The position numbers were made by a program, and so were the translations under genes. The notes under the pieces were generated by a model. The model did not search any database. It saw only the letters and a list, made by a program, of their open reading frames with translations, and was not told where the DNA came from. Positions 22,174-60,670 of a stretch of DNA of 64,000 nt are shown one piece after another; within the stretch, counting starts at the first letter, position 1, and the number at the start of each line of letters is the position of its first letter. The stretch comes from Nitrospirota bacterium (GTDB taxonomy: Bacteria; Nitrospirota; UBA9217): positions 352,001-416,000 of the forward strand of contig CAVWHO010000020.1 of NCBI GenBank assembly GCA_963754875.1. The letters are read 5' to 3'.

Positions 22174-23025
22174 ATGACCCGCCCCCTTCGCATAGAATAC
22201 GCCGGAGCCGTCTACCACATCACCTCCCGCGGCAATGAAAAGAAGGCTGTTTTCAAAGACGACCAGGACCGCATCAACTTCCTGAACACGCTCCAGCATG
22301 TCAACAAGCGGTATAACTGGCTCTGTCATGCCTACTGCATGATGGACAATCATTATCACCTTCTGATCGAGACACCTGACGGCAATCTGTCCCTGGGTAT
22401 GCGGCAGTTGAACGGAGTCTATACGCAGCTTTTCAATAAACGTCATCAACGGACGGGCCATCTATTCCAAGGACGATACAAATCAATCCTCATTCAGAAG
22501 GACAGCCATCTTCTCGAAGTATGCAGGTACGTAGTATTAAATCCTGTCCGGGCGCGGATGGTTGAACGACCGGAAGCCTGGAAATGGTCCAGCTACCGTG
22601 CTACAGTGGGAAAGGAATCGCCGGCACCATGCCTGACAACGGACTGGGTCCTTGGGCAATTCAGCCGAAAGAGAACTGCGGCAGAGCAGAAATACCGGCA
22701 ATTCGTCGAATGGGGTATCGGCAAGGAGACTATCTGGAGAGAGGTAAAAGGACAGTCCATCCTGGGTGAAGACGATTTTGTGGAGGGACTCATCTCCCAT
22801 ATCAAGAAACATCAGAACATTCCTGAAATACCGAAGAGTCATCGCTATGTGAACAGACCGTCTCTCGACAAGATATTTCCGAAAAATGTGATCCTGGATA
22901 AGAGAAAACGAGATAAGAAGATCATTGATGCCGTGCAGAAATATGGTTATACTCAGCAGCAGATAGCCGCTCATTTGAGTATGCATTATTCAACGATCAG
23001 CAATCTGGTGAGGGGTAAGGCGTAA
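22174..23025 (+). CDS. HUH Y1 transposase-like protein (RAYT-like) with C-terminal HTH
   Basis: RPLRIEYAGAVYHITSRGN, HUH motif NHYHLL, HLFQGRY, YVVLNPVRA, WSSY; HTH YTQQQIAAHLSMHYSTIS. Confidence 0.9.
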   Translation: MTRPLRIEYAGAVYHITSRGNEKKAVFKDDQDRINFLNTLQHVNKRYNWLCHAYCMMDNHYHLLIETPDGNLSLGMRQLNGVYTQLFNKRHQRTGHLFQGRYKSILIQKDSHLLEVCRYVVLNPVRARMVERPEAWKWSSYRATVGKESPAPCLTTDWVLGQFSRKRTAAEQKYRQFVEWGIGKETIWREVKGQSILGEDDFVEGLISHIKKHQNIPEIPKSHRYVNRPSLDKIFPKNVILDKRKRDKKIIDAVQKYGYTQQQIAAHLSMHYSTISNLVRGKA

Positions 23026-23030
23026 CACCA

Positions 23031-23046
23031 AAATAAAAGACCTGAC
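23031..23046 (-). repeat. REP-like motif, inverted copy (right of Y1 transposase)
   Basis: AAATAAAAGACCTGAC = reverse complement GTCAGGTCTTTTATTT. Confidence 0.8.
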
Positions 23047-23193: not shown

Positions 23194-23790
23194 ATGTCAG
23201 AAAAGAATCCGCATGTCATTGTCATAGCCGGGCCGAACGGGGCCGGAAAATCGACGACAGCGCCGATGCTTCTCAAGGGGACGCTGGGTGTGACGGAGTT
23301 CGTGAATGCCGACGTCATCGCTCAGGGGCTCTCCGCGTTCCAGCCGGAGAGCGCGGCGTTCCATGCAGGCCGGGTCATGCTGGAGCGGCTGCACTTCCTT
23401 GCGAATGAGCGCGTGGATTTCGCATTTGAGACTACGCTGGCGAGCAGATCCTTTGCGCCCTGGATTGCAAAACTGAAGCAAAGCGGGTATACTTTCCACC
23501 TGGTGTTCCTGTGGCTTCCGAGCGCTGATTTTGCCGTTGCCCGCGTGGCCGAGCGGGTCCGCATGGGCGGGCATGATGTGTCTGAGGAAACCATTCGGAG
23601 GCGGTATAATAAGGGTATCGAGAACTTCTTCCGGCTTTACCGGCCGCTGTCGGACACGTGGCGGATGTATAATAATTCGGCCCGTATAGGACCACGGATT
23701 CTGGCTGATGGCGGGACTGGGAGAAGAGAAGCAACTTACGATCCGGCAACCTGGAGCATGATCAGAGGTGAACACAATGAGCGTAGCTGA
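23194..23790 (+). CDS. Zeta-toxin-like P-loop ATPase/kinase
   Basis: IAGPNGAGKST, FVNADVIA, FAFETTL, RVRMGGHDV. Confidence 0.88.
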   Translation: MSEKNPHVIVIAGPNGAGKSTTAPMLLKGTLGVTEFVNADVIAQGLSAFQPESAAFHAGRVMLERLHFLANERVDFAFETTLASRSFAPWIAKLKQSGYTFHLVFLWLPSADFAVARVAERVRMGGHDVSEETIRRRYNKGIENFFRLYRPLSDTWRMYNNSARIGPRILADGGTGRREATYDPATWSMIRGEHNERS

Positions 23791-23971
23791 AAAGAAAACA
23801 ATTGACGAACTCTTTCGCGACGGAAAAGAAATTGATATCGCTTTACGGAATGCCGTCCAGCAGGCTCTCTTGCAGCACAAGAAGGCCGGAAATCCTGTGG
23901 CCGAGTGGCGTGATGGCAAGGTTGTCTTGATCAAACCGGAAGATATTGTTGTTGAAGAGAATCAAAAGTAA
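23777..23971 (+). CDS. Small partner protein of zeta-like ATPase (putative antitoxin)
   Basis: Overlaps ATPase stop, GAGGTG RBS, HKKAGNPVAEWRDGKVV. Confidence 0.7.
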   Translation: MSVAEKKTIDELFRDGKEIDIALRNAVQQALLQHKKAGNPVAEWRDGKVVLIKPEDIVVEENQK

Positions 23972-24030
23972 AAACCCTCTCCGGGTTCCTTCCCTCTCAC
24001 ACAGCCCGCTCACCTTTGGAAAGCATCAAT

Positions 24031-24111
24031 AAAAAAGCCCCAGTCTTAACGGCGACTGAGGCGCTGCCACGGTCCTGAACCATAGGTAATGGACCACCAG
24101 CCTTGCGGCTT
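24031..24111 (-). ncRNA. Candidate ~80-nt small RNA (possibly PtaRNA1-like antisense RNA)
   Basis: TTGAAC-17-TATATT promoter (24146-24118); AGCC-GCAA-GGCT hairpin; GGTCC/GGACC stem; 9-bp terminator stem plus U6. Confidence 0.65.
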
Positions 24112-24171
24112 GGCAATAATATACAGCAGTGAATAATAGAGTTCAAGCTAAAAGGAAAGGCATTATCAGTT

Positions 24172-24212
24172 ATGACATCTTCCGCAATCGTTCAAAAACT
24201 CTGGAACTACTG
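24172..24212 (+). pseudogene. hsdM: 5' stub of a type I methyltransferase gene
   Basis: Encodes MTSSAIVQKLWNY versus MTPAAIVSKLWNY at 26927; ends at a G run just before the REP-like motif. Confidence 0.8.
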
Positions 24213-24249
24213 GGGGGGGCGATAGGGTCACCCATTTAAAGGGCACCGT

Positions 24250-24625
24250 CAAGCGGAAAAAGCTATCTTGTGGCGAGAAACGAATGTTTCTCGCCGAGCC
24301 TTTTCGTTATCTTCATCATTACCATTGCCGCAGTTTCATTCGGTTTCGGTGTCAGTCTTCACTGCACCAGTCACCCATCGGGATTAAGGTCATTGGTGAA
24401 GCTCTTTATCCATGACCCTTTCCGCCTTATGGCGGACCAGAAAATCTTCGGTTCCATGCCGTGTCCAGGAGTTTGTACAGGTCTCATGGTTGTTAACCAG
24501 CCCCATGATGGCTCGCGGCATGGGCAGTAAAGATGCTGATAACGCTATAAAAGGGTGGGACGGATTACCAATCAGGTCTCGTGGTTTTTTGCCAACCCTA
24601 AGCCAGGTTCACCGTCCCAGCCAGC
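24250..24625 (-). ncRNA. Bridge/seek RNA region of the IS1111-type element
   Basis: ~375-bp non-coding region 3' of recombinase; stem-enclosed loops matching both strands of the target; ATGGGTG matches the donor junction. Confidence 0.8.
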
Positions 24626-25654
24626 CTATGAACTTTGTGTAAAGATTTTCTCCGGCATAAAGGGAACTCCATCTCGCATGATGTAGTACGCTGCCCGCGC
24701 CAGTTTGTGGGCCAGGGCTTGATGGGCTATCATGGCGTTGGTCTTTTGCATCTTGCGCTGGTAATATGCCCGGGCTTCCGGATAATAGCGCCGGGCGATC
24801 TCGGCAGCTTCGGAAAAGGCCCATGCCAGGTACTTGTTGCCGCTTTTCTTGTTCCCTTTGCCCTTTTTCTTGTCGTTGCTGATCCATTTGGTTGAAACTT
24901 TCCGGCAGTAGGAACAATAGTTGCCGACTTGCGCGAAGCGGCTGATCGGGCCGGTCTCCAGCATGATGGTAAGTCCCAACGTTTTACCCACTCCCGGCAA
25001 CGTGAGGAGATTTTTGTATGGTTCGCGCAGCTCCATTCTGTCTTCTATGATGCTCTCAACCGTTTTGATCTTGAGCGTCAGAAAATCTATGGACTCCTTG
25101 CTGATCTTGCCGGCCAAGGCCAGGTCCTCGTTCTGCTCAAGAAACGGCGCAACGCGATCCGTTTTCAATGCCTTGACGTCGTTCGTCTTGAGCCGGAACC
25201 CGTTGTTACGGCAAATGATGTTCTGCAAACTGATGATGAGCGAGGTCCTGAGCTTTACGAGATGACTTCGTTTGCGTAACAAGTCACGGACTGGTCGATC
25301 TTCTTTCGGGTAAATGTAGCCTTCGGGAAGGATCCCGAGCCGCAGCATCTCGGCCAGCCAGAAGGCATCATGCTGATCGTCTGAATACTTGAGCCCCTTA
25401 TATTGCTTTATCTCCGTAGGGTTTGCGAGATGCACCTTGTATCCTTCTGCCATGAGTGCATCCACCAACCAGTACCAGTTGTACGTGGACTCGATGACGA
25501 TGCCGATAATCGTATCCTTGTATGGTGCGAGAGCGGAAAGAATTTGTTCCGGATCATTGGGAAGCTTCTTTTTGAACACCCGTTTACCAGTTTCATCGAT
25601 GATCGCCAGATAACTGTTGCTTGAATGTAGATCAATTCCTGTGTACAATCTCAT
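24626..25654 (-). CDS. IS110-family DEDD recombinase/transposase
   Basis: GIDLH, IVIEST, KYSDDQHDA, TLPGVG, GNKYLAWAF, ALAHKLAR. Confidence 0.95.
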   Translation of the reverse strand: MRLYTGIDLHSSNSYLAIIDETGKRVFKKKLPNDPEQILSALAPYKDTIIGIVIESTYNWYWLVDALMAEGYKVHLANPTEIKQYKGLKYSDDQHDAFWLAEMLRLGILPEGYIYPKEDRPVRDLLRKRSHLVKLRTSLIISLQNIICRNNGFRLKTNDVKALKTDRVAPFLEQNEDLALAGKISKESIDFLTLKIKTVESIIEDRMELREPYKNLLTLPGVGKTLGLTIMLETGPISRFAQVGNYCSYCRKVSTKWISNDKKKGKGNKKSGNKYLAWAFSEAAEIARRYYPEARAYYQRKMQKTNAMIAHQALAHKLARAAYYIMRDGVPFMPEKIFTQSS

Positions 25655-25832
25655 AAAGCACCTCCTGGGATAAGATTGGTCTCTTCTCCCAAGAGCATAT
25701 CAGAGCTTAACCACTCTGGTATGCTCTGGAGGTGCCCTTTATATGGTTATACAGGTCTTTTCTTCTTGATATCGCTTCTTTATGATATGGTGATATGGCG
25801 GTTGGAGCGGTGAGCGCGAATCGTCATCATTC

Positions 25833-26240
25833 CTAGCCCCGCCCGGCCCGGAGGGTTTCCCAGAATTGCCTCGGTGTGATGATGGGGATGTTTTTGTATC
25901 GCTCTAAAACGAGCAGATCCTTGTCGCCGGTTATAAGGTAGTCCGCATGTCCTGCATCGGCAGCGCCGAGAACGGGAAGGTCCTCGTTGTCGCGGCACTG
26001 CACAGCAGTCACCGGCAGCGGTACCGCAAGAATGGAATATTCTCTGAGATACGCCATGATGTCGTCGGCAATGGATGCTGGAAGCGCGATTTTTTGAATC
26101 AGTTTTTTACGAACTTCGGAAAGGATGTGCTCGCTGGTTATGACGGTGTGACCGGAAAGACAGAGTTCAAGAACGTCGGCGCTCAGGCCGCGCGCGGCAA
26201 ATGCCGCGATAATGACGTTCGTGTCCAGAAGGACTTTCAT
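25833..26240 (-). CDS. PIN-domain toxin (VapC-like)
   Basis: VLLDTNVIIAA, CRDNED, LITGDKDLL. Confidence 0.92.
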   Translation of the reverse strand: MKVLLDTNVIIAAFAARGLSADVLELCLSGHTVITSEHILSEVRKKLIQKIALPASIADDIMAYLREYSILAVPLPVTAVQCRDNEDLPVLGAADAGHADYLITGDKDLLVLERYKNIPIITPRQFWETLRAGRG

Positions 26241-26455
26241 GAAATAGCTTTGAATACATCTTCATCGGTCAGCAGGCCTTGTGATTCGGCAAACGGCAGG
26301 ACCTTTTTCCGCAACAGCTGAAACTGTTTGACCGAAAGGTAGCGGATAAGGGCATCTTTAATGATCTTGTCCTTCGATGTCTTTTCCGCTTTCATGACGG
26401 CTTCCAATTCTTTTTCGAGCTTGTCAGGTAATTTTATGGTAATACTTGATGGCAT
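26237..26455 (-). CDS. Ribbon-helix-helix (CopG-like) antitoxin
   Basis: ITIKLPDKL beta-helix-helix pattern; 4-bp overlap with PIN gene. Confidence 0.85.
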   Translation of the reverse strand: MPSSITIKLPDKLEKELEAVMKAEKTSKDKIIKDALIRYLSVKQFQLLRKKVLPFAESQGLLTDEDVFKAIS

Positions 26456-26473
26456 TGTTATCTCCTTTTATGT

Positions 26474-26707
26474 TTAACGCTTCTCTTCCCGGACTTCCTG
26501 TATCGCGTGAGCAATGTCTGATTCTATCTCGTCAGATGAATACTGCGAAGAACGGGCGTGGATTTTTCGCAGGATGCTGTCAAACCGCTTCTGCCATTCG
26601 TCATGGGAGAGGATTTTCAGCTCAACCTGTTCATGCTCTTTGAGGTCCATTTTCTGCAGCGGCTTGAGAACGCCGTTTTCGAATATTGCATTGACTACTT
26701 TGGACAT
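26474..26707 (-). CDS. AF2212/DUF104-like antitoxin
   Basis: AIFENGVLKPL...LKEHEQV; GGAGG RBS. Confidence 0.8.
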   Translation of the reverse strand: MSKVVNAIFENGVLKPLQKMDLKEHEQVELKILSHDEWQKRFDSILRKIHARSSQYSSDEIESDIAHAIQEVREEKR

Positions 26708-59269: not shown

Positions 59270-60670
59270 CTACTTGTAATATTCCGGATATATCATTTTC
59301 GCGCATTGCGGGCAGATACTGTGGCTGAATTCTGCCAGTGAATGCCTGCTCAGATATGCTTCGATCTGGTTCCAATATCCGTTGTCGTCGCGTATTTTCT
59401 TGCAGGACGCGCAAATCGGGATGAACCCGCGCAACGTCTTTATGTTGTCAAGAGCTTCCTGAAGTTCAGAAACGAGCTTTATCCGCTCTTCCTCCATCTT
59501 CTTTCGCTCCGTGATCTCGCCGGTCAGCTTATCATTCGCCATCATCAGCGCCGCAGTGCGTTCCTGGACCCGCAACTCCAGTTCGTCCCTCGACCTTCTG
59601 AGCTCGATCTCCGCCTGTCTGAGAGCGGTTATATCCCGCACGATGTACACATTGGCGAGCAGCCGGCCGTTTGCATCCTTCATAACGGATGCTGACAGGT
59701 TGAGAACCTGCTTGCGGCCGTCCGGATGGTCATAGGAAAGATCGAGCTGTTGCGCCTGCTTTCTGCCGGCCGCTACAGCGGTCTGATCTAAGGATACAAC
59801 GTCGTTAAAAAACGCAGAAATATGCTTCCCCACGAGATCCGGGGTCGAATGACCGAGCACCTGGGTCGTGGGATTGTTCACAAGCCGGATAATGCCTTCC
59901 GCATCGAGAACCAGTAACGCATCGTTCATGGTGTCGATGATGTTCTGAGCGGCGAATCGCGGAGAGATGTCCACTAATCGGTAACGGCTGATGGTCGTCT
60001 CAAGTATCCAAAGGGCGATAAAGATCGCAAAAAAGCCGAAGGGAAAGATTGGAACGCCAAGTCCTGGAAGATAGTCGACAAGACCTAAAGAGCCGATGCC
60101 GAACGCGATAAAGTACGCTTTGATGCGATGGTATTGGACGCTGTTCGGTGCAGCCTGTTTCTGGCCGAGCCAGAAGTGACGCAGGCCGAGGCCATAGAAC
60201 GTCAGCATATATATGATGAGCAGCGTGTTCTGTGGCGCCATTGCTCCCTGGTAACCCCAGGTGTAGTGAATGACGCCTTTCACGATAAGGTCCGTATTGA
60301 TCGCGATGATCGAGAAAAGCGTCGACAGGATCCACCCCGTCCAAATGGTGGTTCGGTGCTTTTTGTCGACCCTGAGTGCCACGACAGCAAAATGGTAGAT
60401 CCCCGCTGGGATGAACGAGATGCCGATATTGGACGTTTTTGCCCACCATATCGACACTGCTTCTTGGTTAGAACTATAGGTAAAAAAATTAGAAACAAGC
60501 CAAATAGTAATGACGATGCCGAGGAAGGCCAGTGCGTCGGCGGCGAGGCTGAACTTTTCCAGGATCAGATGCCGTAGAGAAATGATCAGCGCCGTGACCG
60601 CGATGAGGAGCGTGGGTATGGCGTAGGGATTGAAAAAGTAGTTTGTGGACTCAAAAATCTGGTTTGACAT
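59270..60670 (-). CDS. 7TM-PAS sensor with C-terminal Cys/His zinc-binding tail, no kinase domain
   Basis: Seven TM segments, PAS ending RDIT, coiled coil, IPICASCKKIRDD...SHSICPQC. Confidence 0.85.
   Translation of the reverse strand: MSNQIFESTNYFFNPYAIPTLLIAVTALIISLRHLILEKFSLAADALAFLGIVITIWLVSNFFTYSSNQEAVSIWWAKTSNIGISFIPAGIYHFAVVALRVDKKHRTTIWTGWILSTLFSIIAINTDLIVKGVIHYTWGYQGAMAPQNTLLIIYMLTFYGLGLRHFWLGQKQAAPNSVQYHRIKAYFIAFGIGSLGLVDYLPGLGVPIFPFGFFAIFIALWILETTISRYRLVDISPRFAAQNIIDTMNDALLVLDAEGIIRLVNNPTTQVLGHSTPDLVGKHISAFFNDVVSLDQTAVAAGRKQAQQLDLSYDHPDGRKQVLNLSASVMKDANGRLLANVYIVRDITALRQAEIELRRSRDELELRVQERTAALMMANDKLTGEITERKKMEEERIKLVSELQEALDNIKTLRGFIPICASCKKIRDDNGYWNQIEAYLSRHSLAEFSHSICPQCAKMIYPEYYK

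Follow-up and report, generated by a model that had tools for sequence, protein, structure and literature searches.

The closest described systems are the seekRNAs of IS1111 elements and the guide RNA of IS621. The text of the seekRNA study reports that excision of IS1111 elements needs matching flanks, describes junction promoters for these elements, and distinguishes a short seekRNA from a long form of 145 to 172 nt to which it assigns no role (PMC11187229). For ISEc11, a mini-IS could be mobilized with only the short seekRNA, which outperformed the long form (PMC11187229). The same text presents recognition of the element's own ends, flank-dependent excision, and the role of the longer RNA as open in the IS1111 field. 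Many IS1111 elements are stated to carry their donor-binding bases in a multiloop (PMC11208160), and handshake guides and their effect have been described for IS621 (PMC11208158). Compact RNA-guided recombinases are under development as genome insertion tools, so an extra programmable loop that affected efficiency or direction would matter for design.

The element described here lies in the window, i.e., the whole 64,000-nucleotide stretch of DNA from a Nitrospirota bacterium that was analyzed. An initial annotation of the window had proposed an IS1111-type guide RNA, and the recombinase domains, the element ends, and the covariation of the target-binding loop with the flanks all agree with that assignment.

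The element, its ends, and its target sites

The whole element spans 24229..25753 on the minus strand (~1.52 kb with the TG core counted at both ends). A genome search with the element returned three full copies, which were 100, 99, and 99% identical, and two fragments. The ends were fixed by aligning the three copies with their flanks, and the copies diverge exactly beyond these ends; RNA library contigs from relatives diverge at 24222-24224 into differing flanks. The recombinase gene (24626..25654, minus strand; 342 amino acids) encodes the domain set of the IS110 family, an N-terminal RuvC-like domain (PF01548, DEDD_Tnp_IS110; E value of 8.9e-20, 71.5 bits against a cutoff of 29) and a C-terminal Transposase_20 domain (PF02371; E value of 8.9e-12, 45.7 bits against a cutoff of 21.3). 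Subterminal inverted repeats of 11 bp, within the 7 to 17 bp with short extensions that mark the IS1111 group, lie on the minus strand 10 nt inside the left end (25731..25741; also present in most relatives) and 8 nt inside the right end (24237..24247), the latter distance being made up of 6 IS bases and the TG core. Noncoding sequence amounts to ~400 nt downstream of the recombinase gene versus ~100 nt upstream, again as in the IS1111 group. In gene orientation, the left side runs from the flank (...AAAGACC) through TG into the element start TATAACCATA and the 11-bp repeat, and the right side runs from the inverted copy of the repeat through AAATGGG and TG into the right flank. Because it combines subterminal repeats, a long 3′ noncoding region, and site-specific insertion, features given for the group in the texts of PMC11208160 and PMC11187229, the element is a member of the IS1111 group of the IS110 family.

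The left target half (25754..25760, minus strand) is identical across the three genome copies, and the junction string at 25747-25758 reads as it had been quoted initially. For the right target half (24223..24228, minus strand), the window copy has ACCCTA, the second copy ACCTGA, and the third ACACTT, such that the second and third copies have only the first two right-half bases in common with the window copy; the left half, the core, and AC are common to all three. Joined, the flanks of the window copy form a 13-mer that has three further, uninterrupted (empty) occurrences in the genome, each embedded in a longer repeated motif. The three copies and three exact empty sites indicate insertion that is specific for site and orientation and adds no bases. 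The target repeat, which recurs on several contigs of the genome, is ~30 bp long and consists of a TGTCAA box, 5 to 7 nt, the left half, TG, and the right half (window copy flank, 25754-25790), and it often ends with a partial inverted repeat of the left half. An unoccupied target-like site made up of the left half, the core, and AC (23036..23046, plus strand) lies 11 nt past the stop codon of a Y1 (IS200-like) transposase-like gene with a C-terminal helix-turn-helix (22174-23046, site included), and the third genome copy of the IS occupies the same position behind a paralogue of that gene. The window copy itself sits between a zeta-toxin-like kinase gene with a small downstream open reading frame and a PIN-domain/ribbon-helix-helix pair (23194-23971 and 25833-26455); both pairs are probably toxin-antitoxin modules.

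Relatives were collected in a protein-guided scan of one genome per species, which gave 70 loci (39 to 96% identity, mostly in Nitrospirota assemblies; designated below by L numbers), and three further relatives were added from plasmids. The protein search of the plasmid collection retrieved only IS110 family relatives at ≤51% identity and no named IS1111 member. A −35-like hexamer, TTGACG, in the right end (24247..24252, minus strand) is kept in 16 of 17 aligned relatives. If the ends were circularized, this hexamer would face a −10-like TATAAC (25751..25746) across 18 nt, as judged by eye, and the pair looks like the junction promoter of the IS1111 group; no circle junction was seen in any of the data examined. 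At five loci (L035 and L037-L040), TG at the left junction contrasts with ...GGG-TA-... at the right junction. Here the target seems to supply the second core base on the right side, which suggests that exchange takes place after the T.

Anatomy and conservation of the 3′ guide RNA

The anatomy, conservation, and covariation of the RNA parts were read directly from the element and its relatives. Two stem-closed modules with the same inner layout had been placed initially at 24556-24619 and 24454-24523, and both are found there. Module 1, the equivalent of the short seekRNA, occupies 24553..24622 on the minus strand and starts directly after the recombinase stop codon. Its closing stem is formed by 24556-24563 and 24612-24619 (plus-strand coordinates). 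On the RNA, this stem is followed by UGAACC, a 12-nt arm ending in UAGGGU (24600..24595), a UGG-loop-CCA hairpin, an 8-nt arm ending in AGACC, UG, AU, UGG, and the second side of the stem; AGACCUGA lies at 24579..24572. The right target half is read on its top strand by the 5′ arm (24605..24594), with a perfect match in the window copy only; after the hairpin (24593..24583) the 3′ arm (24582..24575), which equals the left target half, leads into UG (24574..24573). The proposal that module 1 reads the empty target is thus upheld, with arms that match both halves of the 13-mer found empty at three sites.

Module 1 was present in all parsed 3′ regions of relatives, with constant framing bases and hypervariable arms. 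Compared with each element's own flanks, the 5′ arm matched at 122/152 positions, versus 91.2 ± 5.4 when flanks were permuted among 19 classes (0/20,000 permutations), and the 3′ arm matched at 69/84, versus 52.7 ± 3.2 among 14 classes (0/20,000); since the classes are related by descent, these counts, like the permutation figures below, overstate independence and are not to be read as probabilities. A fit of this kind across relatives is the pattern of a target loop, with the arm order given in the text of PMC11187229, and by that pattern module 1 is the canonical IS1111 target-binding loop with arms ordered as in IS1111 seekRNAs. After the core, AU-UGG follows in all relatives; in the majority clade, the left IS end begins with this AU, and in the clade of the window copy that end begins with UA instead.

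Module 2 (24454..24523, minus strand) is a second loop of the same design, closed by 24454-24461 and 24516-24523 (plus-strand coordinates). On the RNA, the order is closing stem, GAGCCA, an arm ending in UGGGGC (24505..24500), a UGG-loop-CCA hairpin (24498..24488), an arm ending in AGACC (24487..24480), UG (24479..24478), the ten bases UACAAACUCC (24477..24468), which loosely resemble the left IS end, UGG (24467..24465), and closing stem; AGACCUGUA lies at 24484..24476. Arm, UGG-7 nt-CCA hairpin, arm, and UG recur in both modules, and their 28-nt cores are identical at 22 of 28 positions. Global alignment of the whole modules gave a score of 0, compared with −11.6 ± 4.05 for shuffled sequences, of which 6 in 2,000 reached 0. 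The hairpin loop of module 2 is nearly invariant in the Nitrospirota clade and unlike the module 1 loop; distant clades have a longer hairpin that contains its own inner helix. RNAalifold paired the four conserved inner CCA/UGG triplets of module 2 differently from the initial annotation, and neither pairing is preferred, because both use invariant bases.

In every relative with a parsed or read 3′ region (39 to 96% protein identity), module 2 was found. These comprise 26 distinct parsed 3′ regions and six distant relatives from Alpha-, Beta-, and Gammaproteobacteria that were read by eye (L045, L046, L053, L062, L076, and L077; 39 to 51% protein identity). In a 17-sequence alignment analyzed with RNAalifold, four pairs of its closing stem showed two-sided changes, and when six module 2 segments were folded singly, all of them formed the closing stem at their outer ends, with differing sequences. 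Compensatory pairs in the closing stems of both modules mark a conserved structure. A duplication special to this element is not supported: retained down to 39% protein identity, module 2 is an old, conserved RNA part and no recent duplicate.

The donor guide that had been expected further downstream corresponds to module 3 (24370..24379, minus strand), which consists of the right IS end, the core UG, and the first two right-flank bases, followed by UGG, and which covaries with both end and flank. The motif AUGGGUG, reported earlier at 24362-24368, is real and lies at 24378..24372, 10 bases from that position. With its next two bases it is, as suggested, a junction guide, matching the right junction (9/9) better than the circle junction that had been named as its partner (7/9). 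Every clade has kept the segment GAUGGGUG-NN-UGG, which opens with the right IS end plus core; in the L012 clade, this opening part shifts together with the right end. NN equaled the first two right-flank bases in 35 of the 41 loci in which both could be read (of 54 table rows), with six kinds of dinucleotide among the matches (AC, CA, TC, TA, GC, and CC), and it did so by eye in 5/5 distant relatives. The mismatches were L023, L035, and the four loci L037-L040; at L035, a 15-bp right-end unit is duplicated, and reading past the duplicate gives a match. Module 3 therefore has both a guide for the right IS end and core and handshake bases beside the core, as a donor loop would, and resembles a donor guide with a handshake dinucleotide of the kind described for IS621 (PMC11208158). 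For the left IS end, no convincing segment complementary to the top strand was seen by eye in aligned or distant relatives, and only a same-sense, left-end-like stretch in module 2 was found. The conserved GAAGAUUUUC-UGG is an equivocal candidate for a left-IS-end guide, with a partial fit (~7/10) in several clades that the end of any clade gives equally.

The RNAalifold consensus of the 17 sequences places module 2, two small hairpins, and module 3 in one multiloop domain (24306..24543, minus strand), closed by a long-range helix (24543..24526/24323..24306), and leaves module 1 standing alone. Two-sided changes occur in 3 of the 15 pairs of this predicted helix, and we regard its support as moderate because most changes are one-sided. 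The joint placement of modules 2 and 3 fits the statement in the text of PMC11208160 about donor bases in the multiloop of IS1111 RNAs. A conserved hairpin past module 3 (24272..24295, minus strand) has 11 pairs, 3 of them with compensatory changes, and is followed after ~10 nt by a U run (24261..24257); together these probably form the 3′ end of the primary transcript. A terminator scan called none, this hairpin included. A promoter scan gave two promoter-like hits, both on the other strand inside the recombinase gene, and Rfam yielded no family in 23500-26500 at an E value of ≤1 beyond two chance snoRNA hits. Four RNA library runs contained contigs 90 to 99% like parts of the element, as assembled contigs without strand or ends; one 317-nt contig from a relative spans modules 1 to 3, which is compatible with transcription.

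Some related loci carry rearranged parts of this RNA. At L021 (L021:1400-1760), the element is directly followed by a second module 2-to-right-end segment. The module 1 arms of L021 match the module 1/module 2 boundary of sibling elements, and this IS thus appears to have been aimed at, and inserted into, the guide RNA gene of a related IS. The 15-bp right-end unit is tandemly duplicated in L021, L035 (L035:2922-2950), and L039 (L039:1514-1545). In the genome of the window itself, the fragment L004 (contig C7, ~59918-60258; 76% identical) is a solitary module 2, module 3, and right end, without a recombinase gene or module 1, with a consensus right target half on its right and with a variant target-like repeat and a 17-nt direct repeat upstream. 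Two further solitary right-end-like pieces are present in the genome.

What module 2 follows and what it may do

Within each element, the arms of module 2 go with those of module 1. Identity was 103/147 for the 5′ arms (77.3 ± 4.4 when shuffled among 21 classes; 0/20,000) and 70/126 for the 3′ arms (49.9 ± 4.0, 21 classes; 0/20,000). The module 2 arms also track each element's flanks, less tightly than the module 1 arms do. With G-U pairs allowed, the 5′ arm matched the real flanks at 107/152 (versus 93.1 ± 3.6; 0/20,000) and the 3′ arm at 62/84 (versus 54.6 ± 2.5; 80/20,000); without wobble, the counts were 91 (versus 70.8; 0/20,000) and 51 (versus 44.6; 510/20,000). The fit is best beside the core, over 4 to 6 bases in the 5′ arm and 2 to 4 bases in the 3′ arm. 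In L010, the L012 clade, L035, L045, L076, and L031, the 5′ arm has changed to fit right flanks other than ACCC; L043 and L027 show no such change, and within the L012 clade the arm lags. The folding and covariation analysis of homologues that had been suggested initially gave covariation of module 1 with the flanks and looser covariation of module 2.

This looseness could mean that module 2 is a protein-binding or folding element whose arms owe their likeness to an old duplication of module 1 and do not guide, an explanation we consider unlikely. It would account for the cases in which module 2 trails module 1 (L043, L027, and some of the L012 clade), for the clustering of module 2 arms by clade (e.g., 5′ arms of the GGGGC type and the AUGC type), and for the sufficiency of the short seekRNA in ISEc11 as reported in the text of PMC11187229. 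It would also accommodate the finding that 3 of the 14 differences among the 99% identical genome copies fall in the module 2 3′ arm (24485, 24480, and 24473), with an unchanged left flank, which may reflect weak constraint. However, an unconstrained duplicate would not be expected to shift with module 1 to six unrelated right flanks in separate clades. Moreover, many of the differences between module 2 and flank are C-to-U or A-to-G changes in which pairing is retained; allowing wobble raised the 5′ match from 91 to 107 of 152, but it raised the shuffled mean equally, from 70.8 to 93.1.

At the position of the AU of module 1, module 2 has 7 to 12 extra bases after the core. This stretch matched the left IS end at 122/200, compared with 102.1 ± 4.3 for its own shuffles (0/5,000). 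The likeness was best in L046 (8/8 with wobble), L045 (7/8), and L044 and L063 (7/8) and was 5/8 in the window copy. An element's own left end was strictly the best of seven end types in 3 of 25 elements and tied in 1 more, and the offset of the match from the core varied from 0 to 3 nt; on these figures, support for the resemblance to the left IS end is moderate. Two other assignments of module 2 were rejected. A plain donor loop does not fit, in that the arms have no right IS end match and the 5′ arm varies while donor ends are constant, and the AUGGG within the 5′ arm of the window copy, considered as a right-end guide, is absent from relatives with other flanks.

We hypothesize, and give it about an even chance of being correct, that the 3′ guide RNA has three guide-bearing parts in which module 2 is a donor-side loop written in the junction register. 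Module 1 would be written in the empty-site register, its 5′ arm pairing with the top strand of the right half and its 3′ arm with the bottom strand of the left half plus core, and the donor-side domain (modules 2 and 3) in the junction register. The 3′ arm of module 2 would spell the left junction (a few left-flank bases, the core, and the left-end-like stretch), as had been proposed initially and as holds for the window copy at 11 of 12 positions. Its 5′ arm would pair with the right flank as a short, wobble-tolerant copy of the target guide that fits best beside the core, and module 3 would complement the junction on the right side of the integrated element. What we infer from this arrangement concerns protein binding, the sequence of steps, and the direction of action. 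A shared motif, UGA(A/G)CC ... UUGG, borders the arms in both modules 1 and 2 and is absent at module 3, which suggests that these two loops carry the two recombinase dimers, with the second held by module 2 as a donor-side loop with extended handshake-type arms. During insertion, the pairings of modules 2 and 3 would form only after strand exchange and would drive the reaction forward, like the handshake guides of IS621; during excision, the same pairings would bind the substrate. Since the pairing used for excision (left flank, core, and left IS end) would be the one that captures the product of insertion, the direction is not readable from the sequence.

The junction-register reading fits the flank-dependent excision of IS1111 elements and the long RNA to which the text of PMC11187229 assigns no role. 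Counting against it are the loose flank-following and weak left-end likeness of module 2, the sufficiency of the short RNA in ISEc11, and the lack of module 2 in IS4321 (described below). In addition, the donor side as predicted is not fully accounted for, given that no left-end top-strand guide was found.

A more restricted version would have module 2 act only on the integrated copy, in excision or direct transfer, and lie idle when a circle inserts. The collinearity of its 3′ arm with the left junction in the window copy would suit such a role, as would the need of IS1111 excision for matching flanks (text of PMC11187229), the direct transfer from left junction to new target reported for an IS110 element (bioRxiv 10.1101/2025.10.25.684509), and the statement that the geometry of excision in IS621 is less favorable than that of insertion (PMC13626964). 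The pairing is, however, identical to that of product capture, from which sequence cannot separate it; the left-end likeness is weak and its offset variable; and the direct-transfer work concerns elements of the IS110 group, not IS1111. We assign this version a low probability.

It is very improbable that module 2 works as a second target loop in its own right, widening the range to GGGGC-type variants, i.e., to repeats with a GCCCCA or ACCCCA right half, as had been proposed initially: the genome does contain two variant repeats with an ACCCCA right half, one adjoining the solitary module 2-to-right-end fragment, but 0 of the 3 genome copies have such a right flank, module 1 gives the better fit for the two off-consensus copies, all loci with the module 1 arms of the window copy and a tabulated right flank sit at AC... 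and none at a right half of the module 2 type, the module 2 arms match core-proximal bases only, and right flanks in 19 classes were fitted better by module 1 in 13 and by module 2 in 4 (L021, L023, L025, and L042), with 2 ties, the L021 flank in this comparison being the duplicated right-end unit.

Beyond the reading of module 2 as a donor-side loop in the junction register, a broader proposal is that this branch of IS1111 elements uses a tripartite guide RNA in which an empty-site loop is joined by a programmable loop and a third guide for both junctions; we advance this tentatively and lean against it. If it were true, the RNA would encode both states of the reaction and would thereby set its direction, by product capture on insertion and substrate recognition on excision or by direct transfer from a resident copy. 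It would explain the unexplained long seekRNA, and retargeting would need changes at three places rather than at one or two.

Comparison with described guide RNAs

A second loop that follows the flanks, together with a right-end guide that carries a flank dinucleotide, amounts to a concrete, testable model for end recognition in IS1111 elements, and the relatives supply a natural series of retargeted variants. Module 2 may also explain the “long” form of IS1111 RNA.

IS4321, an IS1111 family element of plasmid R751, targets the inverted repeats of Tn21-type transposons. Read by eye, it has a target loop of the design seen here (GAACC, arm, hairpin, arm, and UGG) and a downstream guide made of the right IS end and junction bases. 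Unlike the element described here, IS4321 has no module 2-like loop between the two, and its target loop lies ~75 nt past the stop codon. Module 2 is thus a feature of this branch and not of all IS1111 elements.

The direct transfer described for CazIS110-1 (bioRxiv 10.1101/2025.10.25.684509) joins a left junction and a new target and, as module 2 would allow here, employs two target-type recognitions at once. In CazIS110-1, an element of the IS110 group, these recognitions come from two RNAs, a target-loop-only RNA and a bridge RNA, whereas here two loops lie on one RNA. By analogy, we hypothesize that module 2 could serve a direct transfer of this kind.

With IS621 (Durrant et al. 2024, PMC11208160; Hiraizumi et al. 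2024, PMC11208158), the element shares a bottom-strand guide for the left half plus core on each side. As reported for IS621 in the text of PMC11208158, short bases beside a guide match the noncognate partner, and there are two loops for two recombinase dimers, the latter by prediction in our case. The RNA here lies at the other end of the element and has the reverse arm order (PMC11208160), and the handshake-like bases follow the core on the bottom-strand guides and are not, as in IS621, on the top-strand guides (PMC11208158). Three guide-bearing parts, a multiloop donor side, and the lack of a detected left-end top-strand guide further set the predicted RNA apart from that of IS621 (PMC11208160).

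The text portions of the sources examined on IS1111 bridge RNAs and seekRNAs, including passages of a 2026 review (PMC13604230), describe no second flank-matching loop. Likeness is greatest to the seekRNAs of ISEc11, ISPa11, ISKpn4, and ISPst6 as set out in the text of Siddiquee et al. 2024 (PMC11187229). In those elements, too, the recombinase gene precedes the RNA, the target loop comes right after the stop codon, the top-strand match stands 5′ of the bottom-strand match, and subterminal repeats and a junction promoter (here predicted) are present. The predicted lengths of ~75 to 80 nt for module 1 and ~175 nt for modules 1 and 2 are near the 82 to 96 nt and 145 to 172 nt reported for the short and long forms (PMC11187229). 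The two accounts differ in that the text of PMC11187229 assigns target matches to the short RNA only, whereas here the second half of the RNA is a loop whose arms follow the flanks, with a third guide further downstream.
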